DNA of 64,000 bases from Candidatus Moraniibacteriota bacterium. Its GTDB lineage: Bacteria > Patescibacteriota > Minisyncoccia > Moranbacterales > UBA2206. The notes beneath the pieces were generated by a model. That model searched no databases and was not told the origin of the DNA. It was given only the letters and a program-made list of their open reading frames with translations. Each line of letters opens with the position of its first letter. Positions within the stretch are counted from its first letter, which is position 1. The stretch is from positions 11,893 through 75,892 of the forward strand of contig JBAQNU010000024.1 of NCBI GenBank assembly GCA_049304095.1. The letters are read 5' to 3'. The translations under genes were made by a program, and so were the position numbers. Shown one piece after another: positions 1 to 31,811 of this stretch.

Positions 1-55
1 AAGGGTGAAAAGCTAACATATATTTGCTCCCTATATTTAAAGCAAAATCCAAAAA

Positions 56-655
56 ATGAATGAATCTAAGCCAAAATTGAAAACGGCAGGTTATAACTTC
101 AGCGAAGAAGGGTTGGATGCGGTCAAAAAGAACTTGGAAGTGCAAAGAAAGCACGGAGCATTTGAATTTTTCAGAACCAATGTTGCACCAGTTCCCAGTT
201 GCAATCAGTGTATATTTTCCAGTGAATGCGAGCAGTTTCAAAAAGACCAAAAGCATTGCAGGGCTATATTGGAACTCCAAGAAGAAATTTATGCGGAAAT
301 TATCGGCTTGGATTATATCCGTCCCATTGATAAATTCATCGTGGACAGATTCGTCAAAAACTTCTGCTTCCTCATAATCATTGAACGCTGGATAGCCAAC
401 GTGGGTCCGTTTCAAGCTGGTGAGCAAGGATTAGACGTTCAACCTATACTAGCCACAAAAACGCACTATGAGCGTCTGGTGCTAAAACAGGCGGATGCGT
501 TAGGCATAGGACCGCAGGCAAGAGCGAGACTAAACTTAACTAATGTGCAGTCATTTTGTTTTGCGGAGGCATTGCAAAAAGCTAGACCGATAAACAATCA
601 AACTGCACGAATAATTTCAGAAAACGATGAAGAAGACGACGAAGATAACAACTGA
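56..655 (+). CDS. Phage terminase small-subunit-like protein; paralog of the 26928..27467 protein
   Basis: Sits directly upstream of, and overlaps by 29 nt, the large-terminase gene. Shares the Cys motif CNQCIFSSECEQF with the 26928 paralog (CQSCIFSHECEHY). Confidence 0.45.
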   Translation: MNESKPKLKTAGYNFSEEGLDAVKKNLEVQRKHGAFEFFRTNVAPVPSCNQCIFSSECEQFQKDQKHCRAILELQEEIYAEIIGLDYIRPIDKFIVDRFVKNFCFLIIIERWIANVGPFQAGEQGLDVQPILATKTHYERLVLKQADALGIGPQARARLNLTNVQSFCFAEALQKARPINNQTARIISENDEEDDEDNN

Positions 656-2165
656 AAAGCTGATTGAGTATCAAAATGATATTTGTGTCTTCTTGGAAGA
701 GCAATATTTTTTGGATTCTGGGAAGCCAATAAAGTTGGAGCCGATTCAGCGTAAAATTTTGACCGAAGTATTTAATACAAAAAACAAAGACGGACTCAGA
801 AAATACAATGACGCTCTGATTGGGCAAATTAAAAAATCGGGAAAGAGTTCACTCGCATCAGGCGTAGCGTTATATATGCTCTTCTGTGACGAGATATTTG
901 ATGAGCCCAATAATGTATATTCAATTGCATTTTCTCAAGACCAAGCCTCAATCATCTGGGAGAAAACTAAAAAAGCCATAGAGCGGAATCCAATTCTTTT
1001 GGGTAGTGTCAAGATATACCGAGACAAGATTGTTGTTCCCAGCACAGGGAGCGTTTACAAAGTGCTGAGTGCGGAAAGTTTTTCGGCTCACGGACTTGAC
1101 CCTAGTTGCGTAATTGGAGACGAAATTTGGAATCAGAAAAATCGAGACTTACTGGATGCTTTGCAATTTTCACCGACCAGAAAACAACCGCTCCGTTTTA
1201 GCGTAACTTATGCGGGAACTTCCACTGCAACTCCACTTTTTGAGCTTTACGAAAAAGGACTGAACAAGGAAAATCCCAAAATGTATTTTCACTGGTCGCA
1301 TATTCCAGAAGTAAGTTGGATTAGCCCTGAGTTTATTGAAGAGCGAAGACGAGAACTGCCCCCAGCAGTATTTCAAAGATTTTGGGAAAACAAATGGAGT
1401 GCGGGAGCTAACTCATTTTTCACCAGAGAAGACGTGATGCAATGTCGAGATGAATTTATGAAGCCAAAATTCCAAGGAGAAGAAGGCGTGCAATATTTTT
1501 ACGGTTGTGACCTCGGACTAGTAAAAGACAAAACTGCCAGCGTCATTTTGCATCAAGACAAAACCACGGGGATGATTTATGTCGACAGCATCAAAACCTG
1601 GCAAGGCACTAAGACCGACCCAGTGAAGATTGCGGACATCGAAGAGGATATGCTTTTGGCTTCACAGAATTTTCCCAGACTAAAAATCATCGTTGACCCG
1701 TGGAACCTGAAAGGAACGATAGAACGGCTTAAACGACATTGTCGCATAGAAGAGTTTACTTTCACTGGTTCAAATGTGGAGAAGCTAAGTCGCAATTTAT
1801 ACTACTTCATTCACAACGGACTAATTAAATTTTTCCCACACAAAGAATTGGAAAAGGAGCTGTTATCCTTGAACCTTGAGCAGAAATCCTACGGCTATCG
1901 CTTCGACCACCCCAGTTCGCAATTCTCTGACCACGCAATGGCATTGTCGATGGCTCTAATGCAAGTGGCAAGTGTGCGAAAACCAACAGCAGGAATTTTA
2001 ATTTCGGAAAGCCCCACGCTAGAGGAATTTATGGAGCAACAAAAGAAAGCGGAGAAGTCAGAGGTGAAAGTAATGTCAGGAGTAAATAGAACAGAGCATA
2101 ATCAAAATAATTATCCGACCCTGAGTCAGTTGGAAGAGCTTAGGAGTCAGAAGTTAATCTTATGA
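627..2165 (+). CDS. Phage terminase large subunit (ATPase plus nuclease)
   Basis: P-loop KKSGKSSLASGVA, Walker B/DE motif VIGDEIWN and a C-terminal nuclease-like region (DHAMALSMAL). About 60% identical to the 27454..28992 paralog. Confidence 0.75.
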   Translation: MKKTTKITTEKLIEYQNDICVFLEEQYFLDSGKPIKLEPIQRKILTEVFNTKNKDGLRKYNDALIGQIKKSGKSSLASGVALYMLFCDEIFDEPNNVYSIAFSQDQASIIWEKTKKAIERNPILLGSVKIYRDKIVVPSTGSVYKVLSAESFSAHGLDPSCVIGDEIWNQKNRDLLDALQFSPTRKQPLRFSVTYAGTSTATPLFELYEKGLNKENPKMYFHWSHIPEVSWISPEFIEERRRELPPAVFQRFWENKWSAGANSFFTREDVMQCRDEFMKPKFQGEEGVQYFYGCDLGLVKDKTASVILHQDKTTGMIYVDSIKTWQGTKTDPVKIADIEEDMLLASQNFPRLKIIVDPWNLKGTIERLKRHCRIEEFTFTGSNVEKLSRNLYYFIHNGLIKFFPHKELEKELLSLNLEQKSYGYRFDHPSSQFSDHAMALSMALMQVASVRKPTAGILISESPTLEEFMEQQKKAEKSEVKVMSGVNRTEHNQNNYPTLSQLEELRSQKLIL

Positions 2166-2260
2166 GTAATAAAACACAAATAGTATTAGCTCAGACTTTT
2201 CTTTTAGTGGGAATGGCGTTGATTGCGTTAATGCTGTTTTTGATATCAAGGAGATGTTAG
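2162..2260 (+). CDS. Conserved 32-aa single-TM micro-protein translationally coupled to terL; missing from the ORF track
   Basis: ATGA start/stop overlap with the terL stop codon. Hydrophobic core LVGMALIALMLFLI. A positional homolog (MKTKTQ..., 34 aa) follows the second terL at 28989. Confidence 0.4.
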   Translation: MSNKTQIVLAQTFLLVGMALIALMLFLISRRC

Positions 2261-2334
2261 GCAAGGTCAGATAATACGTGTTTTGTATCCTTAGATTTTA
2301 GGAAAGAGTAATAAATAGTTAATTTAAAAAAGTT

Positions 2335-2787
2335 ATGAAAATAAATGTGCAATTTACGCAACCTGTTTCAGCGGAAAAGATGCGACACAACTTGAGACAT
2401 CTCAAAAAGAACATCGCAGTTCTGAGACATTACATTGCGGAAGTGACGGAAGATAAATTTTATCTCAAAGATGAAAAAGGCAATGCGGTGGCAGAATTAA
2501 ACTATTTTATCCTGGAAGAAAAGCAGGCGATTAGTTTTTCAGATTTTCGTGGGAAGCATCAGAGTGAAATTGAACAGATGCTTAGTTTTCGTTTTGCAGA
2601 AGAAGTGGGAGAAAAAGCGTTCATCCATAATTTGGAAAAAAAGACTAGGATATATTTCGACTTAGCGGAATATTTTCTGATAGAAAAAGGCAAGGTCTAT
2701 AAAATTGGCTTAGACTGCGACAAATTGATAGAAATTGAGAGCTACAGAGTGCCAAGAGTGCTGAAAATGGAAGAGGGCTTGACTTAA
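2335..2787 (+). CDS. Hypothetical protein; paralog of 29135..29629
   Basis: Conserved synteny between terL and the integrase in both modules. Shared motifs YLKDEKGN/YLIKDDEK and YRVPRV/YRLPIEV. Confidence 0.5.
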   Translation: MKINVQFTQPVSAEKMRHNLRHLKKNIAVLRHYIAEVTEDKFYLKDEKGNAVAELNYFILEEKQAISFSDFRGKHQSEIEQMLSFRFAEEVGEKAFIHNLEKKTRIYFDLAEYFLIEKGKVYKIGLDCDKLIEIESYRVPRVLKMEEGLT

Positions 2788-2835
2788 CACGCACGCAAGC
2801 TAATGTTGTGACTGTAAGGAGTAAATAGCCACAAT

Positions 2836-3687
2836 ATGGAATACATTAGCCAATTTGTAGAATACCTCAAGGAGAGAAATCTGAGCCCCAACACCATTAA
2901 GGTTTGCAATAATAATCTGGTAGAGTTTTGGAATTTTTTAGGAAGGAGAAAACGTTCAATTAGGAAAGTTGAGAGGAAGGAAATCAAAGCCTTCCTTTTT
3001 ACTTTATCGGAAAAAAATAATCAACCAATCACCAGGAGAGCCAAACTGATTACATTAAGAAGTTTTTACAAATATCTCGAAGATGAAAGTTTGATAAAAA
3101 ATAACCCCACTAAGAATTTGCCTCTGCCAAAAGTTGCCAGCAAGGAACCAGCATTTTTGCAGGAATGCGAGATTAGAAAAATATTGCAGACATTCAAAAA
3201 AGGCAAAGACCCCAGAGCAGAAGTGGCAATTAGGATTTTGGTTGAGACGGGGTTCCGCTTGGCAGAATTGACGAATCTCAGCGTGGGAGATATTGATACG
3301 AAACAAAAAACTGTCAGGGTTACACGAAAAGGCAACATTGAACAAATTGTGCCAATAAATTCTGGACTCGCTAGGCTGATTAAAAGTTTTGTGAAAGGCA
3401 AAAATACTCAAGCACCGATTATTGCCAACAGGGTCGGAGAAAGAATGACGCAACGCAGAGTAGCTATTATGGTGCAGGATTATCTCAAAAAAGCCAAAGT
3501 ACATAGAGCTGGAATTTCAGCACATAGCTTCAGGCATAGTTTTTGCGTGCGGATGCTTCAGAAAAAAGTGAATCTAAAAGCAATCCAGCTTTTGTGTGGG
3601 CACAGGTCAATTTCAACAACTGAGCGGTATTTGCATATAAATAGCTTAGAACTGAGAAAGGGGGTGGCAATGGCAGAAATAGTCTAG
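2836..3687 (+). CDS. Tyrosine recombinase/integrase (XerC/D-like)
   Basis: C-terminal catalytic signature HSFRHSF...LLGH...TERY (R-H-R-Y) and an N-terminal SAM-like core-binding region. Confidence 0.85.
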   Translation: MEYISQFVEYLKERNLSPNTIKVCNNNLVEFWNFLGRRKRSIRKVERKEIKAFLFTLSEKNNQPITRRAKLITLRSFYKYLEDESLIKNNPTKNLPLPKVASKEPAFLQECEIRKILQTFKKGKDPRAEVAIRILVETGFRLAELTNLSVGDIDTKQKTVRVTRKGNIEQIVPINSGLARLIKSFVKGKNTQAPIIANRVGERMTQRRVAIMVQDYLKKAKVHRAGISAHSFRHSFCVRMLQKKVNLKAIQLLCGHRSISTTERYLHINSLELRKGVAMAEIV

Positions 3688-3742
3688 TCGTTTGACCAAA
3701 GCTCTTTTAAAATTCAATAAAGAGAAAGCCGACAGAGTAAAA

Positions 3743-3961
3743 GGATGGAGAGCTAGGGATGGAGCGTGGAGTTGATTTTTAACAAGATATGAGTATATAA
3801 TAGAATCAACAATTCAGTGCCTAACCCTTGTGGGTAAAATCGCAAGGTATGGTATAAAAACCGTTCAAAGTATTAAGCTCTCCATCCAGAGCACTTTGAA
3901 CGGTCATATCTCGAAAGGGATATGGGTGACGCAAGTCATCGCTGGTGGGGAGCTTTGTGTT
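3743..3961 (+). ncRNA. Candidate structured RNA (copy A), conserved with copy B at 30584..30800
   Basis: Intergenic, with a 12-bp stem in which 3 bp are fully compensated between the copies (ccgTTCaaag/ctttGAAcgg versus ccgACTaaag/ctttAGTcgg). It also has a GAAA-capped 8-bp stem and a GCAA-capped stem that change compensatorily. The strand is assumed from gene context. Confidence 0.45.
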
Positions 3962-4016
3962 ATCTTACCAGCAAGAAATTGGTGGCTTTTTTAATTCACT
4001 AAAACCGACTAAAAAA

Positions 4017-5057
4017 ATGGAAACACAACAAAATGAAAAAACCAAGAAGTGTCCATATTGTGCAGAAGAAATTCGCACCGAGGCAATCAAATGTAAATAT
4101 TGCGGAAGTAGTTTGCTAAAGGAAAATATTTCACAACAAGAAACGCATATAACTAAAAAAACTGAGCCAATGGTGCGTCAAAGTTTTTGGACATTCTTGA
4201 GTGTCATCCTGGTATTATTGTTCCTTAGCCCAGCTATAATTATATTTTGGTATATCTCTGTGCCTCTAATTCTTTCTATTATAGCTTTTCTTATTACGAG
4301 GAAAACAAAACTAAATCGAAAAAACAAAATATTGATTGTAACTGCATCATTTATCATACCAGTCCTAATCGGAATACTTTATAACAATGCTTTAAATAGA
4401 AAGCCAGTCATTACCGTAAGTGAACCTCAAAATAACTCAACTGTTCAGGTATATAAGATTATTGTGAAAGGTAAAGTCGAACCAAAAGATGCTGAATTGA
4501 AAATAGATAATCACTTAGTTAGTACTGATGATGGAAAATTTTCTTACGAGATGCTGTTGCTGATGGAAAAAAATTCAATAACTATTGATGCTAAAAATGG
4601 CTCAAGTAATGAAAGCACTAAGTTGATTGTAAATAGAACTTTTACCGATGAAGAAAAAGTAGCGATTGAAAATAAAAGAAAAGAAGATGAATCAAGGAAG
4701 ATGGCAATTGCGGAGCAGGCAGAAAGGGATAGAGTTGTAAGCGAAGCACAAGCAGAAAAAGATAGGATAGCACAAGAAAAAATTCTTTTAGCAGAAGAAA
4801 TAGCCTATGAAAAAACTAAAGCTGGAAGAATTCACACAAAACACCTGGATTGGTCAAAGGAAGATTGCGAAAGATTGGCAAATAATAAAATCTGGATTGG
4901 GATGAGTTATGATATGCTCGTTGAATTATGGGGGAAGCCAAATTATGCCACTCCTTCAAATTATGGAAATGGAACAACTTGGCAATGGTGTTGGACATAT
5001 AATACACCTTCTTGTTTTTATGGTGATGCCGATGGAATAGTTGATAGCTATAATTAA
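4017..5057 (+). CDS. Zinc-ribbon (CPYC...KCKYC) membrane protein with a coiled-coil region
   Basis: Start moved to the Met at 4017 (METQQNEK), which aligns with METQNKK of the 30857 paralog. N-terminal CxxC-x9-CxxC, two or more TM helices, and a Glu/Ala/Lys-rich coiled coil. Confidence 0.55.
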
Positions 5058-5068
5058 AATTAAAACCT

Positions 5069-5413
5069 ATGAAAAAATGTCCCTATTGTGCGGAGGAAAT
5101 ACAAGACGATGCCATTAAATGCAGACACTGTAAGAGTGACTTGCAGACAGGCATTTCTCACAAGCAGAAACTTAAGGAAATAAAAGAAACCAGATGTACC
5201 TGTAATGCGTGTGGCAATACGTGGTTTTATGGCAAGCAAGAAGTTTTGGAAAGCACTGGTAATGTAATGAGCAACTGCGGAAAATCAATGATGTGCTGTG
5301 GTGGATGTTTCCCTGCACTACTAATCGCTGATAAGAAAGTGACAAATTTTGACAAGTGTCCCAAGTGTGGCTCTAAGGCAGTGAATAAGGAAAAAGTTAT
5401 CCATAATGTCTAA
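5069..5413 (+). CDS. Small multi-zinc-ribbon protein
   Basis: Same N-terminal [15 protein letters not shown] ribbon as 4017, plus three further CxxC pairs. Confidence 0.5.
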
Positions 5414-5675
5414 TTTCTCTATTTTTCTCATAAAAAGGTATCAGGCAATCATATCTCCGATTTTGTATAAACTTGGTGTGCGATGTCGTTTTTATCCCCA
5501 TTGTTCAGACTATGCAATTTTGGCAATCAAGCAAGATGGCTGGTTTGGGGGAATAAAAAAGACCTTTTGCAGACTAAGGCGTTGCAATTCAAATAATTTA
5601 GAAAGCTGTATTGATTTTCCGTCTGTGCAGGAATGGAGAACTGAATATCCACGAAGGAATGACTGCTTTAAATAG
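5406..5675 (+). CDS. yidD: YidD-like membrane protein insertion efficiency factor
   Basis: YQAIISPIL...[34 protein letters not shown] matches the YidD/DUF37 signature (YQxxISP..CRFxPTCSxY...RCxP). Confidence 0.7.
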
Positions 5676-5828
5676 TTGGTACGAAATGGTTGGTGGAAAA
5701 GCCACAGAAAAAAAGCAAAAGGAAATTTACGATGACCTACTAAAATATTGCAAGCTGGATACATTGGCAATGGTGGAAATTTTGAAAGAGTTGAGAAACG
5801 TAATTAAGTAAATTTTAATTTTAAAAAA

Positions 5829-6680
5829 ATGACAAATCTAATTTGCACGCTTTGTGGATACTCGGGAGAGGTGCGTCAAAAGAATAAAGGGAATGGATTT
5901 ATTGAACTTATTCTCTGGTTCTTCTTCCTAGTCCCAGGTCTTATCTATTCAATTTGGAGGCGGGCTGATAAAAAAAGTATTTGCCCTAAATGTAAAGGAA
6001 CTGTAATGATTCCAATAGACACACCCAAAGGACAAAAACTGGCTAGCGAGTATATAAATAATCCAAATATAAGCAACATATCGTTGCCAGAGAAAAAATC
6101 AAACAGTGTGAGAAATGTCCTGATGGGGGTAGTAGTAGGCACGCTTCTTATGTTGGCTTTAGCTATCTCAATCTCTATGGATGACGCAAGTAAGAACAAT
6201 AGCAACAACACCCAAAATATTGCAAAACAAAATGAACCAGTCATTCAAAATAATTTACCCACCGAACCACAGGCAAGGATTGAAGCTATTATAAAAAGTG
6301 TTGGAAATTATGAAGTTACGCTGTATGATTCAAAAGAAAATCTTGCTACAGCTAAGACTTTGCCACCTTACGAGGTAATCGTTAACGCTGGAAACGGAAA
6401 AATATCTGAGTGTAAATACGCAAAGAATGTGGTGTTTGATATTATGAAAAAGCTTTATACTGATTCAACAGTAAAAGATAAAATTTCACGAGTAAGATTT
6501 ACTTCGTGGGGTCATTTGAGTGTTAGTGTCGGAGGAGAAGATGGAGCAAAGACAGATTGGAACTCTTCTGGACCGACCAATTTCTGGGTAGTAATTATGA
6601 AATATAAGCCATACGAAGACGAAACTGGGAAATTGAATCAGCGGACGTGGGGCAAGGAAATAGCTAATAATTGTGACTAA
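5829..6680 (+). CDS. Zinc-ribbon membrane protein (CTLCGY...CPKCKG), hypothetical
   Basis: Two CxxC pairs flank a TM helix; a second TM and a C-terminal soluble domain follow. Confidence 0.5.
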   Translation: MTNLICTLCGYSGEVRQKNKGNGFIELILWFFFLVPGLIYSIWRRADKKSICPKCKGTVMIPIDTPKGQKLASEYINNPNISNISLPEKKSNSVRNVLMGVVVGTLLMLALAISISMDDASKNNSNNTQNIAKQNEPVIQNNLPTEPQARIEAIIKSVGNYEVTLYDSKENLATAKTLPPYEVIVNAGNGKISECKYAKNVVFDIMKKLYTDSTVKDKISRVRFTSWGHLSVSVGGEDGAKTDWNSSGPTNFWVVIMKYKPYEDETGKLNQRTWGKEIANNCD

Positions 6681-6688
6681 TGAAAAAG

Positions 6689-6715
6689 CCAGAGCCTGAA
6701 AACTCTGGTTTTGTT
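6689..6715 (+). terminator. Rho-independent terminator
   Basis: CCAGAG/CTCTGG stem followed by TTTTGTT. Confidence 0.55.
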
Positions 6716-6845
6716 ATAGGCTGGCATTAGTTAACCAAACCAAAGGAAAAAACGCACACAAGCTAAAATTTAGCTAAATTGGGGCTATTTTCTTTACTTT
6801 ATAGCTAATTGGGGGTAATATAAAAAATATAAAATAGATTATAAA

Positions 6846-9800
6846 ATGAAAGATACAATGAATCAAAACCTTGCCAATTTCATAAAATACTGCTTGGGGT
6901 ATATAAATATAACTCGCCAAAAAGGATTCTTTTCTCAGCAGAAAAGTTCCATAGAAATATCGGAAAATATTTTGAATTTGGAGGGGTTGTTAAATGGCGA
7001 GCTTGATGAAAAAACAGAAGAGCTTATTAACCTAGAAACTTTTTATAGTTATGACCCAAAAAAAGTTCCAGAAGAACTCAAAGAGGAATACCAGAAACAA
7101 AAAGAGTTAGCTAATAAAATTGAGGATATTTATAATAAACACAGGAATGACCAATATCGAAAACAGATTATTTTGCATTTCGGACATTTTGAAATAGAAA
7201 TTCCTCAGATAGAAGAAGAAAACGGCGATGTGACAGAGAGTGTGGAATTGAGCGAAGAAAAAGCTGGCAAGCAGGCCAAGTTATTCGAAGGAAAAGAATT
7301 TGAGAACGAAAAAGAGGACAATGAAGTAAATATAAAAAAAGAAAGTTACCCTTTATTTAGTTTGCCAATTCGTATTGAGAAAGATTGTGGCAAGTATTTT
7401 ATGTACACTGTTGACCCAGAAATTCAGGTCAATATTGGTTCACTGGAAGGTGTGTTAGGAGAAGAATTATATTTTCAACTTTTGGAGAAAATTAGTAAGT
7501 ATGAGATAGATGATAGATTCACAATACCAATAAATGATTTAGCAATTCTTCAAGAAGTTTGGCACGAAGTAAAAAATCAGTTGAAGCTAAAGGATGTGGT
7601 CTTTGAAGAAGAGTCGTTTAGTTTAGAAGAAATGAAATTAACCCTGGGGCTCAAGGCAAACTATTTTTTATCGGAAGATTTGCGAAAGCTATCAGAACTT
7701 TCAGGAGATTTGGAAAAATCATCTCTCATAAGCTGGGTAAATAATGATGGGCTAAACGAAGAGACTAAGACTATAAAGAAAACAGAACTGTATTTTCCTT
7801 TTGCTTATGATAAGCATCAAGTTAGAATTTTATCACTTCTTAAAAATAAGGCTTTTATAGTCGAGGGTCCTCCTGGTACAGGAAAATCCCAAACAATTTC
7901 CAATTTGCTGTGCCATTTAGCAGCCTCAGGAAAAAAAGTACTTTTTGTTAGCCAGAAAGCTCAAGCCTTAAAGGTAGTAAAAGATAAGCTCAAGACTTTG
8001 GGGGTGGATTATTTATTTGGTTATCTGCCTAATCCAGCATCGGCTCAACTTAATGAAATAGATGAGCTGGATGGTATTGCTCCTCAGCTCTCCGCAATGA
8101 ATCAGCATATCGAAAAAATACTTCACGGCTCACAAAGAAGTAACGCCAATAAAAGCTCCGAATTATCTGAGGCGGTAGAAAAAACTTACCAGCTAGTCAA
8201 TGACTTAAATTTGGCTGTAGAAACACAACGAAAAGCATATGCTCTTTATACAGAACTTGAAAAACTCAAGGAATTTGAGATGAGCATCACTGAATTTGAT
8301 GTTTTTTGTCAGTGTTTTTCACGAGAATATTGGAGGGGTATAAAAGACTTGAAGGGGAAAATGGAAGAGCTTAGTCATTTTTTAGAAAAATATGGAAATT
8401 CTAAAGAAAAGAGACAATTGGACAAGGTATTTTCTAAATTGGATTTTAATGGAACTAAGTACTTTGGCTTTATAGACACAATTTTGGGGGATGTGGAAAA
8501 AACTTGTTATGACAAACATTCGAAGTTTTTTAGAAATATAAATAACACAAAAAGAAATTTTAGATTAAAAACAGTTCGCAATAGTCTCCCAATGGAAATA
8601 ATAGATGTTGTGGACGAGCTTTTATTAGAAGACTTATCTAAAAATGAAAAGGTTAAATTTTTAAAAATGCTTTCTGGCTATTGTCAATTCTTTGAAGTGA
8701 AAAGTGAACTGGAAGAGCACCGACTTCAGCTGGAGAAGTCTTTATGCGAATGCGGAGTCTCTCACGATGAATTCCAGATTATTGACAAAAAAATATTAGA
8801 AACGCCTTCTTGTGAGTTGGAGAAAATAAAAGATAAGATTGTTAGGGTGCAGGCGATAAAAGAAGAGTTGAAAAATCTTAAAGCTGGAAATCAAAATGTA
8901 ATTACTTCCCAACTTCACGACATTCGAAATGATGTTGGTCTTCGAGTCGCTCATTATCTCAAGAACATTCTCAACAAAAATATCATAGAAAAATGCAGTA
9001 CTAGTATTACGGTAAGACAAATAGTAAGACGCTTAGCAAGTGCCTTCAAAAAATCAAAGACTGCTTTTAAGACTTTTGATAAAATCAGGAAAGATGCGGA
9101 TAACTTCAACACCATCTTGGACCTCATACCGATTTGGATAATGGAACTCGATGACGCTAGTCGCATTGTTCCATTGGAAGCGGGGATTTTTGATTATGTG
9201 ATTCTAGATGAAGCATCACAGTGCAATGTTGCCTATACGCTTCCAGTAATGTTTAGAGCTAAACACGCTATTTTTGTTGGAGATAGTGAGCAGATGAGAG
9301 ATAATACAATAATGTTTAAATCCAATAGGACATTTGACGAACTGGCGAAGAGACATCAAATCCCAGATGAATTAAGAATAAAGAGTACAGGAACAACAGT
9401 ACAATCTGTTTTGGATATAGCGTATCTTAGGGGTTTTCAAAATAAAGCGTTGACTTATCACTATCGCTCTCCTAAGGAGCTAATCGGTTTTTGTAATAAG
9501 TATTTTTATATTCCCAAGGGTAAAGAATTGATATCATTAAACAGTCAATATTTAACTTACAAGGACACAAATAGGATAATGATTGCCCATTATATTGAAA
9601 ATGATTGGAGCGAAGAATTTTCTGATGCGGTTAATGTGGCAGAAGCCAAAGCCATTTTGAGTTTATTTAGGGAATTAAGGAGCGATGATAAGTATAAAAA
9701 TAAATCTATTGGTATTCTTTCATTTTTCAACGCACAGGCTACTTTTATTCGTGAATTGCTGGAAAAAGAGGGATTTAAGGAGGAGAAGAATGACTATGTT

Positions 9801-17927: not shown

Positions 17928-18192
17928 CCCACGAATCACCTCCTTTCTAGGGAGAATTTGGTAATAATCGAGAGCACGGCACGCGAAGACTTCTGGTGTC
18001 ATCATCAAGAGTTGTGAAGTGTGATTATTGCCCGCTGGTCGACTCCAATTTATTGGAGAACAGCAATGCCTAGCAGAGCTAACAGAATCTGTAGTAAGTT
18101 TTGTACAACTTACGGATAAACTCTAGGACTAATCGCAATAGGTTGTGATACATATACTTTTTGCAAGCAAGAACACCTTAAATGGTGTTTTT
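17928..18192 (+). ncRNA. Conserved ~250-nt non-coding element (copy A2) that begins with an anti-SD-like CACCTCCTTTCT and ends in a terminator; paralog at 53271..53505
   Basis: Blocks shared with the 53271 copy: AATCACCTCCTTTCTAGGGAGA, CCCGCTGGTCG, AATCTGTAG, GGACTAATCGCAA. Ends in an AACACC/GGTGTT+T6 terminator. Confidence 0.35.
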
Positions 18193-18260
18193 TGCGTTAT
18201 TTGATTAGAAACGCTTGATTAGAGGGAGATTTTATTACCTCTACTCCGCTTCGCTTTTTA

Positions 18261-18283
18261 GGGCTACTTCTAGCCCTTTTTTG
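18261..18283 (+). terminator. Rho-independent terminator
   Basis: GGGCTA-CTTC-TAGCCC followed by TTTTTT. Confidence 0.55.
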
Positions 18284-18372
18284 CTATGCGCTCCGTTCCC
18301 CGCTGGAGTGGATAAGTCGGCCTTGACTCTGTGTGCCACGAAGCTAATGTGTCATTGCCTTAATAAAAATAT

Positions 18373-18573
18373 ATGACCAAAGCTAAATTCATAGCCTTCG
18401 AAAAAGTCAGACGCAGTGGGCTGACTAATATGTATGACATCACTCAGGTTAGGCTCATCGCCATCAAATACGGACAGATGCTTACCAACAAAGATTGCTT
18501 TGACTGTATGCTCAACTATGACAAATATCGCCGAAAATATTTAGAAGATAAATCAATATGGAAAAAACAATAA
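18373..18573 (+). CDS. Small hypothetical protein overlapping the integrase start
   Basis: ORF only. Confidence 0.2.
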   Translation: MTKAKFIAFEKVRRSGLTNMYDITQVRLIAIKYGQMLTNKDCFDCMLNYDKYRRKYLEDKSIWKKQ

Positions 18574-19442
18574 AAAATACCACTGAAGAATTTCTGGGAT
18601 GGTTGCAGGTCGAGAGACGATTCGCGCAGAGTTCTATAATCAGCTATCGCTCCCGGCTGAAATGCATCGTCAGGGACATTGGGGATATTGAAATAAAAGA
18701 TATTACCACAGAACATATTTTTAAGCTCAAATCCATTCTTTACGAAAGAGAAAATTCTGAAGTTTTCACTGGAGTGGTAATGGCATCAATCAAGGGGCTA
18801 TTGCTCTACTCCAGAGACCTGCTAAAAATCCCTCTTCAGATTGATCCCGGCACAATAACTATTCCCAAGCGCAAAAAGAAGGAAGTCGTTTATCTGACAG
18901 TTGAGGAAATCAATAGATTTCGAAGCAGTATCGACATTAGTAAAAATTGCGGACTCAGATTCAGGACATTGATCGAAGTGCTTTTGGGAACCGCCTGTCG
19001 CATTTCAGAATGCCTTAGTCTCAACCGCGATTCAATTTCGCTGATCGAAAAAGAAGCGAGAATAATTGGCAAAGGCGGAAAACAGCGCGTCCTATATTTC
19101 AATGACGAGTCGCTTTACTGGATAGACAAATATCTAAAAACTAGGACGGACAAATATCCGTCTCTTTTTATAACCACAGGCGAACAGCCAAAACGATTAA
19201 CCAATCAGGACTTGAGTCGCTATTTCAAAAGACAAAGGCTTCTGGCTGGTATTTCCAAAAAGGTCACCCCACACATTTGCCGACACACGGCCGCAACAAC
19301 AATGGCGATGAATAACTGCTCAGCTATCTTTATCAAGGAAATCCTCGGCCATAGTCGGCTTCAAACTTCGATTGATTACTATATTTCACTGGCTGACAAG
19401 CAAAAGGTGAAACAAGCGCACCAGACATTTCTGGTGTATTAA
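18558..19442 (+). CDS. Tyrosine recombinase/integrase
   Basis: HICRHTAATT...ILGHSRLQTSIDYY. Confidence 0.8.
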   Translation: MEKTIKNTTEEFLGWLQVERRFAQSSIISYRSRLKCIVRDIGDIEIKDITTEHIFKLKSILYERENSEVFTGVVMASIKGLLLYSRDLLKIPLQIDPGTITIPKRKKKEVVYLTVEEINRFRSSIDISKNCGLRFRTLIEVLLGTACRISECLSLNRDSISLIEKEARIIGKGGKQRVLYFNDESLYWIDKYLKTRTDKYPSLFITTGEQPKRLTNQDLSRYFKRQRLLAGISKKVTPHICRHTAATTMAMNNCSAIFIKEILGHSRLQTSIDYYISLADKQKVKQAHQTFLVY

Positions 19443-19465: not shown

Positions 19466-20434
19466 GTGGTAGAATTGGATTATATGAAAGTAAATATACT
19501 CCAAAAATACTACGATAGCTTCATAGCCCAAAAAGATAACCAATCCTTTTTAATTGGGTTGGCCGATTATATCAGATTCATTTTAGCTGATGAAAAATCT
19601 AAGGAAATTATTTCAGAAATACAAAAATCCAAGGAGGCACTTTTGGCCGAAAAAGATAGTCTGGAGAAAACAGTTGACAGTGAAACAAGGATTGCCAAAA
19701 AAGAATACCTTGACATGACGGGATCATCAGAGACGGTTGATGATATTTCTCTCGCGGATAAAGTGCTCTATTCTCAGTCTCATCCGAAGTTGGCCGAGCT
19801 GGATAAAAAAATAAAAGAGGAAACGGAAACTTCAATTTGGGGAGCTTGGGATAAAATAAGTTCGGTTTATTCCGGATATTCAAATTCAACATTGAGCGAC
19901 AATCTGGATATAGCGCGCTACGTGCCTTACGCGAATAGAATTCATAATTATCTCTTGGGAAAACTGGATGATAAAGCAGAATCAACTGGCAGTTATTCGG
20001 TTATGGATTTTAAGAAAAGCAATAATGATTCAATTTTGGAAAAGGATGGACTGAAAGACATCAGTTCCATCATAATCGTCACAAGAAACCCGGGACTTAG
20101 GGACGAGTCATTGTGGTTGGTTTTTAATAACGACTTTCGCAATAAAGTTAAATTTTTAGCCAAGAAAAAACAAGCAGGCGATAATTATATCAAGAAGCTA
20201 CATGAGATTGTCGATAAAAGTAAATATGGCGCGAAGGTTCTACATGATCATCAGATAGCAACCACAATAAACTCAAAGATATTTAAAAGAGTGGGAGTCG
20301 CGGGGGTGTATAGGCAAAAGACAATTGTGGAAAAAGATGGAGATAATTTTGGGATAAATCAGGAAATTGATATTAATATTGTGCCAAAAGGAATGCTTAA
20401 GGAAGAGCAGGCTAAGTTTTTTCCAAAGGGATGA
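19466..20434 (+). CDS. Hypothetical protein
   Basis: Long ORF between two integrase genes; no recognisable motif. Confidence 0.45.
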   Translation: MVELDYMKVNILQKYYDSFIAQKDNQSFLIGLADYIRFILADEKSKEIISEIQKSKEALLAEKDSLEKTVDSETRIAKKEYLDMTGSSETVDDISLADKVLYSQSHPKLAELDKKIKEETETSIWGAWDKISSVYSGYSNSTLSDNLDIARYVPYANRIHNYLLGKLDDKAESTGSYSVMDFKKSNNDSILEKDGLKDISSIIIVTRNPGLRDESLWLVFNNDFRNKVKFLAKKKQAGDNYIKKLHEIVDKSKYGAKVLHDHQIATTINSKIFKRVGVAGVYRQKTIVEKDGDNFGINQEIDINIVPKGMLKEEQAKFFPKG

Positions 20435-20581
20435 TTTCCGAGTAGTTTCTGTCTGAAAATAATATTTACGAGAAAAGAATCGCTTATCAGAGCGGTTTTT
20501 TTGCGTTTGATTTACGAGCAAAGGTTATTTATTTGGTGCATGAAGTTGAGATAATAAGAGCATAAGATATAAAACCAATAA

Positions 20582-21547
20582 ATGATTTCCATATTTTCCG
20601 ACAACTTAAACCTTTCTGACAGTTTTGACCGCTTCTTTGAGGATATTGAGGCGAATTGTTCGCTGTCCAAAAGTTCAATCGAAAAATACAAGGAAATCCG
20701 TCCCCGGATAATTAAATTCTTTGGCAATATAAGCATAAAGAAGATTGATGCTCGGATGATTACTAAATATAAGCAGTATTTGAATCAATCAAGTCAGAAG
20801 AAAGACAACCTCAGTCCCAGTTATAAAAATCAGCACCTGACATTACTCCGTTTGCTTCTGAAATTTGTGAAGGAAAAAGAAGGCGCAAAGGTGATGGATT
20901 ATGCTCAGATTTCCAAGTTCCGAGTTCCAATTAAGGAGGTTGAGACATTGAATGAGTCGGAGTTGTCCACGGTGCTTGACTACCCAAATGAGAAAACAAT
21001 TACTGGGTGTCGACTGAAGGCATATTTTGAAGTTTCATTTTCAACCGGCTGTCGCGTGAAAGAAGTTTTGGGCTTGAAGATATCGGATATTAATTTCAAA
21101 GACAGGATTGCTCACATTCGGACGAAAAATAACAAACCTCACACCATTTTGTTTTCCGATTCCTCAATTGAAGCGATTAACAAATATTTGGCTATGAGGA
21201 AAGATAATCATCCAAATTTATTCGTGACTGCAACTCCCAATCCCAAACCATGGCAAACCAACGATGTTGAAAGGAGTCTTCGAATGATCGGACGAAAACT
21301 GAAGCTTAGTAAGAATCTCAGACCACATATTTTACGCAAATCAGCCGCGACGCACATGTATAAAAACAACGTTTCGCTCGGAGTCGTGCAAAATTTTTTA
21401 AACCATTCCTCCGCCAGAACCACGCTGACTTACTATTTAGGCAATTCGAATTTTGAAGAGCTAAGAAGGAATCACGACAGAGTTATGAATAATCTGGATT
21501 TTAGAGATAAGACAGATTCATCTGGAGAGGGGGTGAGAACTACATGA
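20582..21547 (+). CDS. Tyrosine recombinase/integrase
   Basis: HILRKSAATHMY...FLNHSSARTTLTYY. Confidence 0.8.
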   Translation: MISIFSDNLNLSDSFDRFFEDIEANCSLSKSSIEKYKEIRPRIIKFFGNISIKKIDARMITKYKQYLNQSSQKKDNLSPSYKNQHLTLLRLLLKFVKEKEGAKVMDYAQISKFRVPIKEVETLNESELSTVLDYPNEKTITGCRLKAYFEVSFSTGCRVKEVLGLKISDINFKDRIAHIRTKNNKPHTILFSDSSIEAINKYLAMRKDNHPNLFVTATPNPKPWQTNDVERSLRMIGRKLKLSKNLRPHILRKSAATHMYKNNVSLGVVQNFLNHSSARTTLTYYLGNSNFEELRRNHDRVMNNLDFRDKTDSSGEGVRTT

Positions 21548-21963
21548 AGTTGCAGAAAAAGGAAACTATGGGGATGCCTTTCGCCAAGAAAGGAACAGAT
21601 GTCAAAGAAGGAGACATAATCACCATAGGTAGTGAAGGGAAGATTGTGGAAACTCAATTCGGCTCACAGAACATTTTTGAAATCAAAACTGCTAATGGCG
21701 TGGAATTGGTTTTGGGTATCAACCAGACCAGCATCAATGCCTTGGTGGATGCTTTCGGAGAAGAAACTGCGAACTGGGTAGGCAAGAAGGTAAAAGTTCA
21801 TTCATTTAAGCAAAATGTGGCTGGTAAATTTATACAGGTTTACTATGTCGCACCAGAAGGCTATGAAATGGGTGAAAACGGATTTGAGAAATCCGGATCA
21901 GTAGGAGTGGTTAACGCTCATATGAGTGAAGAATGCGCGGTTGTGGAAGACAACGCTTTCTAA
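21544..21963 (+). CDS. Hypothetical protein
   Basis: Overlaps the integrase stop by 4 nt, suggesting operon coupling. Confidence 0.4.
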   Translation: MKLQKKETMGMPFAKKGTDVKEGDIITIGSEGKIVETQFGSQNIFEIKTANGVELVLGINQTSINALVDAFGEETANWVGKKVKVHSFKQNVAGKFIQVYYVAPEGYEMGENGFEKSGSVGVVNAHMSEECAVVEDNAF

Positions 21964-22240: not shown

Positions 22241-24862
22241 TTGTTCGGTGGCTCCTGCTGGCCTTGGATGCGAACTATTCCGTCCATCCGAGGTCAACTG
22301 GAGTCACGACGGAATTATATGAACTACGGTAATATCTCGCCGCGAGAGTATCTGCGAGAAAAAAACATTGAATTCAGGGAAGTAAACGGTGAACTGGTAA
22401 TGAAGTGCATTTTTGGAGATTGCGATAGCGACAGTACGGAAAACGAAGCGCATCTTTGGATGAATGCCGAGACTGGGCAATACCAATGCAAGAAATGCCA
22501 GGCAGAGGGAAACCTCCTAACGCTTGCTAAACATCTTGGCGATAGGATAGTTGATGTTGTTAAGCAGCCGAAAATTCAAAAACTTAAAAAGGTGTTTGAT
22601 CCAAGCCTAGTGGATTTTTGCCATGACAGACTGCCGGATGAGATTAGAAAATATTTGAATAACCGCGGTTTGAATAACGAACTGATTAACGAATATAAAC
22701 TGGGTTGGTGGGTTTCTCGAAATGGAAACAGAATAAGTATTCCGGTTAAAAACGAATCAGGCGAATACATATATTTGAAACTGAGGAAAGACCCGAGTGA
22801 TTCGAGTAAGGGAAATAAGTATATTTTCTATCCCAATGCCAGTTCCAGCTTATTTGGCATAGAACTACTGCGAAAAGAAAAAGGTAGGGTATTTATTTGC
22901 GAAGGTGAGTTGGATTGCATCCTGCTTCAGTCGAAAGGATTGATAGCAGTAACTTCCACGGCCGGTGCGGGAACTTTCAAAAAGGAATGGATAAAGGAAT
23001 TTGAGCATCTTAAGGAAGCATATATAGTTTTTGACAACGATGACGAGGGGAGAGCCGGATCGGAAATGGTGGCTAAAAAACTATCGGCCATTGACGGACT
23101 GGAGGTTAAAATAATTCGTCTTCCTGAAGCAGTGGGTGAAAAAGGAGATATTACCGATTATTTTGTAAAGCTGAACGGCACGAAAAAAGAGTTAACCAGA
23201 TTGGCTGAACCGTTTGAAATGGAAACCGAAGAAGCTGAGGATGACGACACGGATGAAAGAAAAAACCAAAGCGACCTTATTGTTGAATTAGTGAAGGAAA
23301 ACAAGAGGATTGTTCTTTTCCATGATGACGCTAGAAGTCCGTATATCAGTCTGCCGGTTTCCGGACATAACGAGATATTAAATCTGAAGGATCAGAATTT
23401 CAAATATTGGCTGGGAAAGAAGTTTTGGGATAAATACAAAAAGGCTCCCAATTCCGATTCCATTAACAATGCCCTTAATATTATTAAAGGTGAGGCAATA
23501 TTTAACGGATCGGAATATAAGCTGGAATGTCGGGTGGCGATTAGAGACGATGCTATTTGGTATGATCTTTCCAATAAAAAATGGCAGGCAGTAAAGATTA
23601 CCAAAGACGGATGGGAAATTGTGGATAATTCTCCGATAATGTTTCGCCGATATTCCCACCAGAAAGCGCATCCCTTGCCAGTAAGGGGAGTGGCCATTGA
23701 ATTATTATTGCCATTCATAAACATTAGGGATAATGGACAACAGCTTTTGCTTCTGGTTTATATAATCAGCTGTTTCATTCCCGGCTTTCCACATCCGGTT
23801 ATCAATATTTATGGTGCCCAAGGTTCAGCTAAGAGCACCCTATTCAAATTGATTAAAAAGTTAGTCGATCCATCGCTTATCGAGGTATCTAGTTTTCCCC
23901 AAGGCGAAGACAGTTTTGTTTTAAAGCTGTCTCATCATTGGTGTATTCTCTTCGATAATGTTTCCTTTTTGTCCGATCAGACTTCAGATTTGCTTTGCAA
24001 GGCAGTGACAGGCGCGGCCTTTTCCAAAAGAGAACTTTACAGCGATGACAACGATGTCATACATACTTTCCGGAGGTGCTTGGGAATAAATGGAATAAAT
24101 TTGGTTACATCCAAGCCGGATTTATTGGAAAGGAGTTTGTTGTTTGAACTGGACAGAATTCCGCCAGAAGACCGAAAATTGGAGCAGGATATTATTGATA
24201 ATTTTGAGCAAATGTTGCCGGAACTATTAGGAAGCATTTTTGACATAGTCTCTGAAACAATGAAAGTTAAACCAGGGATGAGTGCTCAAAATTTGACCAG
24301 GATGGCTGATTTTGCCCATTGGGGTTCGGCTATTGCCAGAGCTTTAGGGCACAAGGAGACAGAATTTCTGGAAGCTTACCGCAATAATATAGCCAACCAG
24401 AATAACGAAGTGCTTTTGGAGAATTTCGAAGCTATAACCATCCTCACTTTTATGGAATACAGGGATGAATGGGAAGGAACCGCGTCGGAACTACTGGAAG
24501 AATTGAAAATTATAGCTGGAAAGCTGCAAATTGACATCAAAGAAAAAGGATTTCCTAAAAGTGCCAATAATCTTAGTAAAAGAATCAACCGTCTGAAAAC
24601 TAACTTGGAAGAAGCTGGGATAAAAGTTTACCGCAAGGAAGAAAACAGGCAAAGGATAATACGCTTCCAACGAGTTGGCAAATCAGTCGTTTCTATCGAT
24701 GCATCGTTGCAAGATGGCGTTTTAAATAACGATAGCAACGGTAAAAACGATGAAAACGCAAGCTTGTCGGAGCAAAAAAGCTTGCTTGAAAAGGAAGGAG
24801 GTGTAGTTGAAGCGGAAAAATACAGCGATGAATATGACATTGCTGAGGAAATAGATTTTTAG
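22241..24862 (+). CDS. Bifunctional DNA primase (zinc finger plus Toprim) fused to a P4/D5-type NTPase
   Basis: CKKCQAEGN zinc motif. Toprim FICEGELDC...VFDNDDEGRAG. P-loop GAQGSAKST. The true start may be the Met at 22319 (MNYGNISPREYL). Confidence 0.7.
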   Translation: MFGGSCWPWMRTIPSIRGQLESRRNYMNYGNISPREYLREKNIEFREVNGELVMKCIFGDCDSDSTENEAHLWMNAETGQYQCKKCQAEGNLLTLAKHLGDRIVDVVKQPKIQKLKKVFDPSLVDFCHDRLPDEIRKYLNNRGLNNELINEYKLGWWVSRNGNRISIPVKNESGEYIYLKLRKDPSDSSKGNKYIFYPNASSSLFGIELLRKEKGRVFICEGELDCILLQSKGLIAVTSTAGAGTFKKEWIKEFEHLKEAYIVFDNDDEGRAGSEMVAKKLSAIDGLEVKIIRLPEAVGEKGDITDYFVKLNGTKKELTRLAEPFEMETEEAEDDDTDERKNQSDLIVELVKENKRIVLFHDDARSPYISLPVSGHNEILNLKDQNFKYWLGKKFWDKYKKAPNSDSINNALNIIKGEAIFNGSEYKLECRVAIRDDAIWYDLSNKKWQAVKITKDGWEIVDNSPIMFRRYSHQKAHPLPVRGVAIELLLPFINIRDNGQQLLLLVYIISCFIPGFPHPVINIYGAQGSAKSTLFKLIKKLVDPSLIEVSSFPQGEDSFVLKLSHHWCILFDNVSFLSDQTSDLLCKAVTGAAFSKRELYSDDNDVIHTFRRCLGINGINLVTSKPDLLERSLLFELDRIPPEDRKLEQDIIDNFEQMLPELLGSIFDIVSETMKVKPGMSAQNLTRMADFAHWGSAIARALGHKETEFLEAYRNNIANQNNEVLLENFEAITILTFMEYRDEWEGTASELLEELKIIAGKLQIDIKEKGFPKSANNLSKRINRLKTNLEEAGIKVYRKEENRQRIIRFQRVGKSVVSIDASLQDGVLNNDSNGKNDENASLSEQKSLLEKEGGVVEAEKYSDEYDIAEEIDF

Positions 24863-24950: not shown

Positions 24951-25181
24951 ATGACCAACACTAAAAAGAAAATTGAAGAGCTGAATCAGGTTCTTTCCGA
25001 TCACTCCGATATGAGGGGAAGTCGGCAAGTGTTCTATCTGTTTCCGCAATTCTATCAGGAAAAGTTATATAAGCTGGAAGTCCTGCTTTCTGAAAAATAT
25101 GGCATCGCGGGAAAGTCCAAAATTATAGCTCTGGCAGTAAGCTATCTAATCAAGGAAATAGAAAAAGATGAAAAAGTATAA
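24951..25181 (+). CDS. Small hypothetical protein
   Basis: ORF overlapping the methyltransferase start. Confidence 0.3.
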   Translation: MTNTKKKIEELNQVLSDHSDMRGSRQVFYLFPQFYQEKLYKLEVLLSEKYGIAGKSKIIALAVSYLIKEIEKDEKV

Positions 25182-29629: not shown

Positions 29630-29687
29630 GCCTTGATAGTATTCCCCAAAGAGCTATGGTGTGTCCATAAGTTAAGAGTAAAACAAA

Positions 29688-31801: not shown

Positions 31802-31811
31802 GCTAAGAAAA

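Follow-up and report, generated by a model that had tools for sequence, protein, structure and literature searches.

How can two sets of phage DNA-packaging genes sit in one bacterial contig without any gene for a phage particle? This question is raised by a 64,000-nucleotide stretch of DNA from a Candidatus Moraniibacteriota bacterium (GenBank assembly GCA_049304095.1, contig JBAQNU010000024.1, positions 11,893 to 75,892 of the forward strand), the whole of which is called the window here. It holds two modules, both entirely on the forward strand and identical in gene order: a small terminase subunit (terS), a large terminase subunit (terL), a very small open reading frame (micro-ORF), a gene for a hypothetical protein (hyp), a tyrosine integrase, an RNA of the LOOT family and a gene for a zinc-ribbon membrane protein. 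An earlier note made from the sequence alone had described these two modules, and the open reading frame (ORF) lists, the family scans and the Rfam matches to LOOT agree with it on their positions and order. Our answer is that the modules belong to two larger integrative elements, named A and B, and we are highly confident of their architecture and of their integration at the 3′ end of the 16S rRNA gene, which is the main new result. For the fuller statement, that two complete related elements stand in tandem directly downstream of the host 16S rRNA gene and are satellite-like with a terminase of their own, we see the chances as evenly split. The window is 100% identical to contig JBAQFD010000024.1 of GCA_049287085.1, and TerL homologues with 70-90% identity come from organisms named Candidatus Moranbacteria or Moraniibacteriota, and Parcubacteria; the host is a Moranbacteria-like bacterium of the candidate phyla radiation (CPR).

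Integration at the 3′ end of the 16S rRNA gene

The proteins of the window were compared by tblastn with 105 fetched loci, which are cited by L numbers where they have to be told apart. Rfam placed the 3′ part of the small-subunit rRNA at the start of L008/L037, L031, L035 and L041, co-oriented with the elements and directly upstream of them. The true 16S end reads ...GCTGTGGATGG up to a 20-mer core, ATCACCTCCTTTCTAGGGAG, which consists of the last ~12 nt of the 16S, including the anti-Shine-Dalgarno CCTCC, and the first bases of the spacer. The window carries exactly two exact copies of this core, at 17935 and 53272 (none expected by chance), each followed by ~230 nt of spacer-like sequence, and the copies are 75% identical over 239 nt (17934-18161). 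They are:

17935-18161, forward strand: 16S-tail repeat 1, junction of elements A and B, core ATCACCTCCTTTCTAGGGAG plus spacer-like sequence
53272-53503, forward strand: 16S-tail repeat 2, core ATCACCTCCTTTCTAGGGAG, right outer boundary of element B or else of an earlier insertion beyond it

Repeat 1 is homologous to the true 16S 3′ end and spacer of L008, L031, L035 and L041. Neither window core is preceded by a 16S body: Rfam at the gathering threshold found no rRNA in the whole window, and a scan by E-value found none in 51.5-55 kb. The intact 16S of this genome lies off the contig. Two 16S tails that lack the body of the gene therefore mean that the window holds a tandem array, in which element A runs from outside the window to 17934 and element B from 17935 to at most 53271; the last 16 kb of element B may represent cargo or what is left of earlier insertions. 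A second tandem array was found in L106, a contig with two TerL genes.

Ten junctions were aligned. Upstream of the core, four of them have 16S sequence and six have unrelated sequence, and a 21-nt invariant core with conserved spacer blocks runs through all ten. L031 contains a complete element of 18,818 bp between direct repeats of ~240 nt (16S end at 1553, repeat at 20371), in which the 24-nt core is 96% identical and another 168 nt are 95% identical. At the right end, the flank ...CCTCCCACGA, joined to ATCACC..., adjoins the core in the window, L030, L053 and L106, and this conserved flank marks the right end of the element. Right of the core, strain L003 matches the window with 98.7% identity, and left of it the two are unrelated, a breakpoint which is exactly what site-specific exchange at the core predicts. 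L010 and the window contig end at or near the 16S junction, as expected if assemblies break at the 16S gene, and the Logan assembly of the same sample breaks inside the 53272 repeat, where one contig starts. A search for the empty site by means of the gene to the right of this repeat returned nothing beyond the same contig and two short ones, of which one begins within the repeat. The junctions show that each element begins with the last ~12 nt of the 16S and spacer-like sequence, and that integration rebuilds the 16S and leaves the displaced tail at the distal end.

The earlier note had looked to attachment (att) repeats in related genomes to define the element boundaries; the 16S-tail repeats of L031 and the window are such repeats, and they explain the tandem arrangement. 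Repeats close to the 5-kb modules were also considered and rejected as boundaries: the sole significant direct repeat, a 22-mer at 18305 and 29615, is a conserved promoter-like motif, which every element has before two of its recombinase genes, and not an outer boundary. No tRNA target was found in the window or in the CPR loci.

The surroundings of the attachment core have some features of their own. A group I intron in L041 (990-1762) and an insertion of ~930 nt in L031 (about 618-1553) lie in the 16S just before the last exon, which holds the core. Just before 16S-tail repeat 1 there are two tiny ORFs (17431-17545 and 17585-17680) for Gly/Asp-rich acidic peptides, with GGAGG ribosome-binding sites.

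Gene order of the complete elements

The 5-kb module, which the earlier note had taken as the unit, is the packaging and recombination core of a much larger element of roughly 19 to 35 kb bounded by the repeats of the 16S 3′ terminus. One longer gene order recurs in ~25 independent CPR metagenomic loci with 50-90% TerL identity, and because so many independent loci repeat it, the order is not due to chance. It reads: DUF5049 and Int4, (322-aa protein), an Int5-type recombinase, a variable stretch of 3-4 kb, then the methylase block with (76-aa protein), D12 methylase and ParB, followed by TerS, TerL, (micro-ORF and hyp), Int1/2, (LOOT) and variable genes. Int4 homologues occupy the equivalent position in >20 loci, and the trio of 76-aa protein, D12 methylase and ParB lies upstream of terS in nearly all related loci, element A included. 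The left half of element A was read from L005, a Logan contig that is 100% identical to window positions 1-12165 and extends 8.8 kb further upstream. Upstream of terS1 it carries a partial recombinase, a primase-like protein, a second recombinase, small ORFs, a D12 methylase and a ParB-like protein; the upstream half seen in module 2 is thus present in module 1 too. The primase, methylase and ParB-like genes before the second module had been likened to a satellite replication module, and they are indeed part of the element, but they precede module 1 as well. Outside the core modules, the recombination and replication genes in the window are:

15301-16212, forward strand: Int3, Xer-like recombinase near the right end of element A (Pfam)
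18373-18573, forward strand: DUF5049 small protein, left end of element B (Pfam)
18558-19442, forward strand: Int4, Xer-like recombinase, left end of element B (Pfam; synteny)
19466-20434, forward strand: 322-aa protein (synteny)
20582-21547, forward strand: Int5 recombinase (Pfam; synteny)
within 19466-21963, forward strand: 139-aa protein (Pfam scan, synteny)
22241-24862, forward strand: DnaG/Toprim-type primase with a C-terminal NTPase-like region, replication module of element B (Toprim_2, PHROG 47/239)
from 24951, forward strand: 76-aa protein (Pfam, PHROG scan)
25168-26232, forward strand: D12-class adenine methyltransferase (Pfam, PHROG)
26253-26891, forward strand: ParB_N-domain protein (Pfam, PHROG)

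The true start of the primase is probably downstream of the TTG. A homologue of Int3 with 66% identity sits 1.1 kb before the right junction of L030. To describe the parts that vary, 147 unassigned ORFs from 22 related loci were scanned jointly against the family libraries, the 25 families with the most ORFs being listed per scan. The variable stretch of the relatives holds replication initiators, DnaB-like helicases, RepO-like proteins, Prim-Pol/PriCT, DnaD-like loaders and ParA, and the replication module is exchangeable, the Toprim primase of element B being replaced by Prim-Pol, DnaB-like or RepO-like modules. Methylases, restriction enzymes and further defence genes came from the downstream region in the same scan. 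When contigs were scanned with a single TerL, only two loci were recovered.

Three more distant loci were also noted. L055 (3527-12661) is an island of 9,061 bp between perfect 74-nt tRNA-Thr repeats, with a RepO-like protein, TerS, TerL (39% against TerL2) and an integrase; no capsid gene was recognised in it, and it is a possible minimal terminase-carrying satellite outside the CPR clade. L007 (7227-15348; Desulfoferula mesophila AP028679) is an island of ~8 kb adjoining tRNA-Arg, with HTH_17, TerL (49%), Phage_capsid, a gp10-like protein and an integrase, and it resembles a very small capsid-forming satellite. Judged by these two relatives, the TerL lineage tends to be one of small integrative islands. 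The Parcubacteria contig L107 (7726-12564) has a TerL (42%) between three tyrosine recombinases, without TerS, methylase and ParB, and with an FtsK/SpoIIIE-type translocase upstream of TerL. The link between TerL and recombinases may predate the full module.

Core genes of the two modules

The genes of the two modules are as follows; the LOOT genes are given further below:

56-655, forward strand: terS1, small terminase subunit of element A, P27 / Terminase_4-like (Terminase_4 E 3.4e-3, PHROG 83)
627-2165, forward strand: terL1, large terminase subunit of element A (TerL_ATPase, PHROG 9)
2162-2260, forward strand: micro-ORF 1, 32 aa, hydrophobic, translationally coupled to terL1 by an ATGA overlap with its stop
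2335-2787, forward strand: hyp1, 150 aa, 38% identical to hyp2
2836-3687, forward strand: int1, Xer-like tyrosine recombinase, 283 aa (Phage_integrase 118 bits, plus SAM_1)
4017-5057, forward strand: zinc-ribbon membrane protein 1 (Zn_ribbon_3 and Glucodextran_B-like matches)
26928-27467, forward strand: terS2 (Terminase_4 E 4.6e-5; NCBIfam P27-family small terminase E 2.9e-6)
27454-28992, forward strand: terL2 (TerL_ATPase, PHROG 9)
28989-29093, forward strand: micro-ORF 2, 34 codons, ATGA overlap with the terL2 stop
29135-29629, forward strand: hyp2, 164 aa, homologue of hyp1
29688-30539, forward strand: int2, Xer-like tyrosine recombinase, 283 aa (Pfam 128 bits; 53% identical to int1)
30857-31801, forward strand: zinc-ribbon/TM2 membrane protein 2 (Pfam)

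Pairwise comparison of the modules gave identities of 41% for terS, 54% for terL, 33% (weak) for the micro-ORF, 38% for hyp and 53% for the integrase, lower than the 50-65% that had been estimated before. The earlier view that the modules are not a recent duplication is supported, and they belong to two related elements.

The large proteins had been open to the objection that they might be some other ATPase-nuclease, and they proved to be true TerL homologues. TerL_ATPase of Pfam scored 55.3 bits with TerL1 and 90.8 bits with TerL2 (cut-off 23.7), and PHROG 9 matched them with E-values of 3e-53 and 9e-64; Pfam TerL_nuclease reached 17.9, under its cut-off of 24. An alignment of 16 sequences, 39-74% identical to TerL2, showed that the Walker A residues K69, K70, G72, K73 and S74 (PKKNGKS), the Walker B residues D161 and E162 and the nuclease residues D291, D353 and D432 are invariant, and that the C-terminal tail is conserved. 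The profile of the TerL family matched the large terminase subunit 6z6d in the PDB (E 7.6e-22), which we take to be that of HK97, and the nuclease domains 5tge, 5m1q and 5m1f (E 8e-5 to 3e-4). The terL start overlaps terS by 29 nt in module 1 and by 14 nt in module 2. The assignment of TerS comes from weak matches, with Terminase_4 scores of 18.2 and 24.2 bits against a cut-off of 24.7 and a P27-family NCBIfam score of 27.2 against 45.6; three libraries agree on a small terminase, all below threshold, and the position, overlapping and upstream of terL, is canonical.

All five recombinases matched Phage_integrase of Pfam with 104-129 bits, and int1 and int2 show the catalytic R, HxxR and Y motifs (GFRL, HSFRH or HSLRH, ERY). 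Chromosomal XerC/XerD was considered as their identity and rejected: they scored 127-204 bits with the NCBIfam XerC/XerD equivalogs (int1 188-193 bits), whose cut-offs are 330-335, and two copies with 53% identity lie within one window. A one-helix hydrophobic peptide of 22-49 aa occupies the position of the micro-ORF in 17 of 22 related loci. Homologues of hyp are confined to these elements.

Could the modules be two decaying prophages that kept terminase and integrase by chance? The earlier note had allowed for remnants of integrative elements, and terS, terL and an integrase are a frequent leftover of prophages; one integrase, that of L008/L037, is frameshifted. Against this stand the ratios of nonsynonymous to synonymous substitution (dN/dS), which by the Nei-Gojobori method, where dS was unsaturated, are 0.03-0.12 for terS, terL, hyp and integrase against relatives (terS1 0.10, terL1 0.06, terS2 0.03-0.05, terL2 0.05). 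Judged by these ratios, the core genes are under strong purifying selection, and with the catalytic motifs intact there is no decay. Moreover, the ~25 loci, at 50-90% TerL identity, all show this gene set in this order and never with structural genes, the promoters and LOOT are conserved, and the element ends are precise and bounded by repeats. Prophage remnants are thus largely refuted, and we give this explanation only a very small chance.

Search for structural genes

Pfam and PHROG scans found no capsid, portal, tail or lysis gene among the element proteins of the window, and no structural gene in the 8.8 kb upstream of it in L005. The earlier finding that neither module has capsid, portal or tail genes thus extends to the elements and to this upstream DNA, where structural genes just outside the window would have made the elements ordinary prophages. 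Among the 25 families listed per scan for the 147 ORFs of the 22 loci, none was for head, portal, connector or tail proteins. This excludes a consistent structural component of the elements, and an occasional structural gene may occur among families with fewer ORFs than those listed. In every locus terL is followed by the micro-ORF, hyp and integrase, with no head, portal, tail or lysis module beside the terminase, and window positions 36.8-64 kb contain no phage-like genes.

A split arrangement is the next explanation to be weighed. The structural genes might lie elsewhere in the genome, as in a domesticated system like a gene transfer agent, or the elements might be small autonomous viruses with unrecognisable capsid proteins. 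The examined DNA comprises one 64-kb window and 10-kb flanks, and several conserved proteins have no family or fold match, the candidates being the 322-aa protein (19466-20434), a 393-aa protein of L005 and hyp. Neither the 322-aa protein nor the 139-aa protein near it matched a structural protein. The 322-aa protein gave nothing in a profile search of the PDB, and its single-sequence AlphaFold2 (AF2) model was unusable (predicted local distance difference test, pLDDT, 43). The AF2 model of hyp was better (pLDDT 80) and gave no informative fold match and no viral or capsid fold, which argues against hyp as a capsid protein. No portal-sized ORF is conserved in the core, the space between recombinase and methylase holds replication genes in the relatives, and the right part of the window, as said, is free of phage-like genes. 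On balance we regard unseen structural genes as improbable, though clearly more probable than prophage decay.

LOOT RNA, promoters and terminators

The RNA genes and signals of the elements are as follows:

3772-3995, forward strand: LOOT RNA gene 1; promoter 3772-3801, Rfam match 3818-3940, with another hairpin and a run of U behind it
30608-30829, forward strand: LOOT RNA gene 2; promoter 30608-30636, Rfam match 30653-30779, terminator 30804-30823
2779-2806, forward strand: sigma-70-like promoter upstream of int1 (TTGACT, 16 nt, TAATGT, read from the sequence)
18169-18192 and 18260-18277, forward strand: two hairpins resembling intrinsic terminators, after the spacer-like segment and before the first promoter of element B (terminator scan)
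18305-18352, forward strand: DnaA-box-like AGTGGATAA and promoter (TTGACT, 17 nt, TAATGT), site of the L001/L004 breakpoint
29615-29662, forward strand: second DnaA-box-like and promoter motif, upstream of int2, 21/22 identical to 18305-18326 (none expected by chance)

LOOT 1 and LOOT 2 scored 101.6 and 87.8 bits with RF03000 (gathering score 46.4) and cover model positions 1-121; seven further copies in related loci scored 85-100 bits over the full 121-position model. The promoter of LOOT 1 scored 10/12 in the promoter scan. Compared with shuffled sequences, the fold z-scores were -8.3 and -8.2, and the LOOT DNA is 89-93% identical between copies, as against 67% for the flanking coding DNA. 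LOOT follows the Int1/2 gene in 11 of ~18 checkable elements. A role as leader of the zinc-ribbon gene was rejected, since the next gene varies among loci and LOOT has its own promoter and terminator. LOOT is therefore read as a small RNA carried by the elements, at the border of their cargo.

A motif of ~50 nt (AGTGGATAAC, 8-10 nt, TTGACT, 16-17 nt, TAATGT) lies upstream of the DUF5049/Int4 genes and of the Int1/2 genes in >15 loci. It reads as a putative sigma-70-type promoter after a 9-mer which, on the opposite strand, looks like a DnaA box. In the strains L001 and L004 the match to the window begins only at 18307 and continues to the right, and because this breakpoint falls at the motif, the motif may also serve as a second site of recombination, by which the 11.3-kb Int4-to-hyp segment could move independently. 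The terminator-like hairpins could block read-through from the rRNA operon, a role suggested by their position.

Cargo and surroundings

The cargo of the two elements in the window is:

6846-15228, forward strand: defence-type cargo of element A; SF1 helicase with MTES_1575 nuclease domain, OLD-family ATPase-TOPRIM, XseA-like protein plus HRDC, HEPN (Pfam)
30857-36597, forward strand: proximal cargo of element B; zinc-ribbon/TM2 protein, Pif1 helicase, Fic, a pair of the cyclic-oligonucleotide-based antiphage signalling system (CBASS; CD-NTase and Cap15), SWIM protein (Pfam)

Defence-type cargo likewise follows the integrase in L006, L008 and L106, and Pif1 likewise in L009, L010 and L035; across the ~25 loci, anti-phage defence makes up most of the variable cargo. 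The zinc-ribbon gene, which had been counted as a conserved member of the module, is the first gene of the variable cargo: proteins 1 and 2 can be aligned over only ~44 N-terminal residues (66%), and their C-termini are unrelated. Its ATG starts at 4017 and 30857 are more likely than the mechanical ORF starts, because the latter fall within LOOT. An N-terminal zinc ribbon of ~30 aa is common to three genes (4017-4110, 5069-5140 and 30857-30940), which continue into unrelated C-termini: Glucodextran_B-like (4017), short and Cys-rich (5069-5413) and a TM2 domain (30857). This trio suggests domain swapping behind a conserved start.

Two parts of the cargo were noted in their own right. The XseA-like protein of element A, an exonuclease VII large-subunit protein with an N-terminal HRDC (12728-14245), stands between the OLD-family ATPase-TOPRIM (10622-12598) and HEPN (14479-15228), and is unusual in a defence-type island. 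The CBASS pair of element B (CD-NTase and the Cap15 effector) is followed by the SWIM zinc-finger protein, at 34353-36597. From ~36.8 kb onward the genes are ordinary (TetR, ABC and MacB transporters, glycosyltransferases, a transporter of the major facilitator superfamily, a P-type ATPase). Nearly all genes of the window are on the forward strand and the GC skew is positive throughout 1-64000, which fits a single replichore of a small genome.

Are the elements phage satellites?

The best reading of elements A and B is that they are satellites similar to phage-inducible chromosomal islands (PICI), and we infer that they are transferred in capsids. The element would excise by recombination between the 16S-tail repeats and replicate by its own primase; its own TerS-TerL complex would then cut the element DNA and pump it into procapsids of a helper phage. 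It would thus be a phage satellite with a full terminase and without a capsid, spreading defence cargo between cells. For this capsid-hijacking mechanism we put the chances at even or a shade below. The defence cargo adjoining the core is a satellite-like trait, and so is the setting of the more distant TerL relatives in L055 and L007, which are small islands at tRNA genes.

A number of results weigh against satellites. No helper phage was found for the elements, no circular contig was present among the loci and no excised form was seen. IMG/VR held no TerL relative above 30% identity, the TerL of GenBank phages reached at most 31%, and both the 29-mer of the attP-type junction and a 20-mer of LOOT were absent from IMG/VR. 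These IMG/VR and GenBank phage negatives mean that nothing yet places the elements in virions. Pfam and PHROG scans of the element proteins in the window found no AlpA, MerR or Stl-type regulator, small unassigned ORFs remaining, and no capsid-size-redirecting gene was recognised in the elements. Element B, with up to 35 kb, is larger than typical satellites, and its distal 16 kb look like ordinary transport and glycosyltransferase genes. The elements have three or four Xer-like recombinases each, in excess of what a simple satellite needs. A second strain breakpoint, that of L001 and L004 (18307), coincides with the promoter motif and not with the 16S core. Finally, a hijacker with only a terminase requires a helper with a compatible portal, since TerL must dock on the portal, and this is unusual among described satellites.

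Some of these points would suit a different element, a self-replicating integrative island whose terminase does not serve encapsidation and instead processes replicated element DNA for release and for uptake by competence, or mainly sabotages the packaging of infecting phages. The elements lie within defence islands and carry them, IMG/VR yielded no virion-associated copy, and L107 retains TerL and three recombinases without TerS, methylase and ParB. CPR bacteria are thought to depend on DNA uptake. However, the elements keep a complete TerS-TerL pair of the HK97 type with a conserved TerL tail under strong purifying selection, which is the pattern of a working packaging motor, and to our knowledge no terminase functions without a portal. 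We therefore consider such an island unlikely, though it is the strongest of the competing explanations.

Satellites thus remain the preferred reading of the elements. Its widest form is that they are the first phage satellites of CPR/Patescibacteria, with the 16S anti-Shine-Dalgarno terminus as att site, a spacer mimic, tandem stacks, entry into helper capsids by their own TerS-TerL, LOOT, and a role as a main vehicle for defence systems in these tiny genomes; this sum of claims is tentative, and we lean somewhat against it. It is described as unknown whether satellites extend to the viruses of CPR bacteria (preprint 10.1101/2025.02.15.638363), and if the proposal is true, the elements would add just this layer of parasitism (host, CPR epibiont, phage, satellite). 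A mobile element would then land at the 3′ end of the 16S rRNA, among the most conserved sequences in biology. This would explain why CPR assemblies break at the 16S gene, and would bear on rRNA processing and on the linking of 16S genes to genome bins. The elements would represent a satellite design between PICI and the capsid-forming PICI (cfPICI), with a whole terminase and no capsid, and the orphan LOOT RNA would gain a host and a genetic context in which its function becomes testable. The 20-nt core and its recombinases are of possible interest as tools for site-specific integration.

Comparison with known systems

Known satellites are mostly from Proteobacteria and Firmicutes, and the core components of PICI and cfPICI have been published, with terL as specific to cfPICI (PMC10085698). 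The CPR elements resemble PICI in having an integrase, a primase/replicase module and TerS, in carrying accessory or defence genes after the packaging gene, in lacking capsid, tail and lysis genes, and in site-specific integration with flanking direct repeats. They differ in that they carry a full TerL, whereas PICI has TerS as the sole packaging gene, and in their three or four Xer-like recombinases, where PICI has a single integrase. They yielded no AlpA, MerR or Stl-type regulator and no recognisable gene for capsid morphogenesis; they target the 16S rRNA 3′ end, and they live in a CPR bacterium. With cfPICI they share TerS and TerL, both encoded and of the HK97 / P27 type, but they are without the major capsid protein, portal, protease and head-tail adaptor/connector, which are most of the 11 core components of cfPICI. 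By the published membership criteria, they fall outside both PICI and cfPICI; the earlier suggestion of a satellite or PICI-like hijacker is still the best reading, as a proposal, and the helper phage was not found.

The elements are not P4-like either. No Pfam or PHROG match to Psu, Delta or Sid of P4-like satellites was obtained, and the primase is of the DnaG/Toprim type and not the alpha type. Intact tailed prophages have head, portal, tail and lysis modules, which the elements do not, and the flanks here are defence, transport and replication genes. The terminase itself is like that of HK97-type phages in its TerL_ATPase and RNase-H-like nuclease, in the P27-family TerS that overlaps terL and in the nuclease-type gene upstream of terS (here ParB_N); unlike in those phages, no portal, protease and capsid genes follow terL, and the identity to phage TerL is at most 31%.

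For the targeting of the 16S terminus by a mobile element we found no precedent in the literature, in limited searches that are no proof of there being none; nor did the literature searched contain a precedent for the LOOT description or for CPR satellites. The closest parallel listed here is the group of islands at the 3′ ends of tRNA and tmRNA genes, which also use a tyrosine recombinase with crossover in the 3′ end of a stable RNA, rebuild the gene with element sequence, leave the displaced 3′ fragment as a distal repeat and form tandem arrays at one site. The difference is that the target here is the 16S terminus including the anti-Shine-Dalgarno CCUCC, and that the element also brings ~230 nt of spacer-like sequence and terminators. 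LOOT (RF03000), which Rfam holds as a small RNA derived from metagenomes, here gains a CPR host and a fixed context after the third recombinase, with its own promoter and at the border of the cargo.

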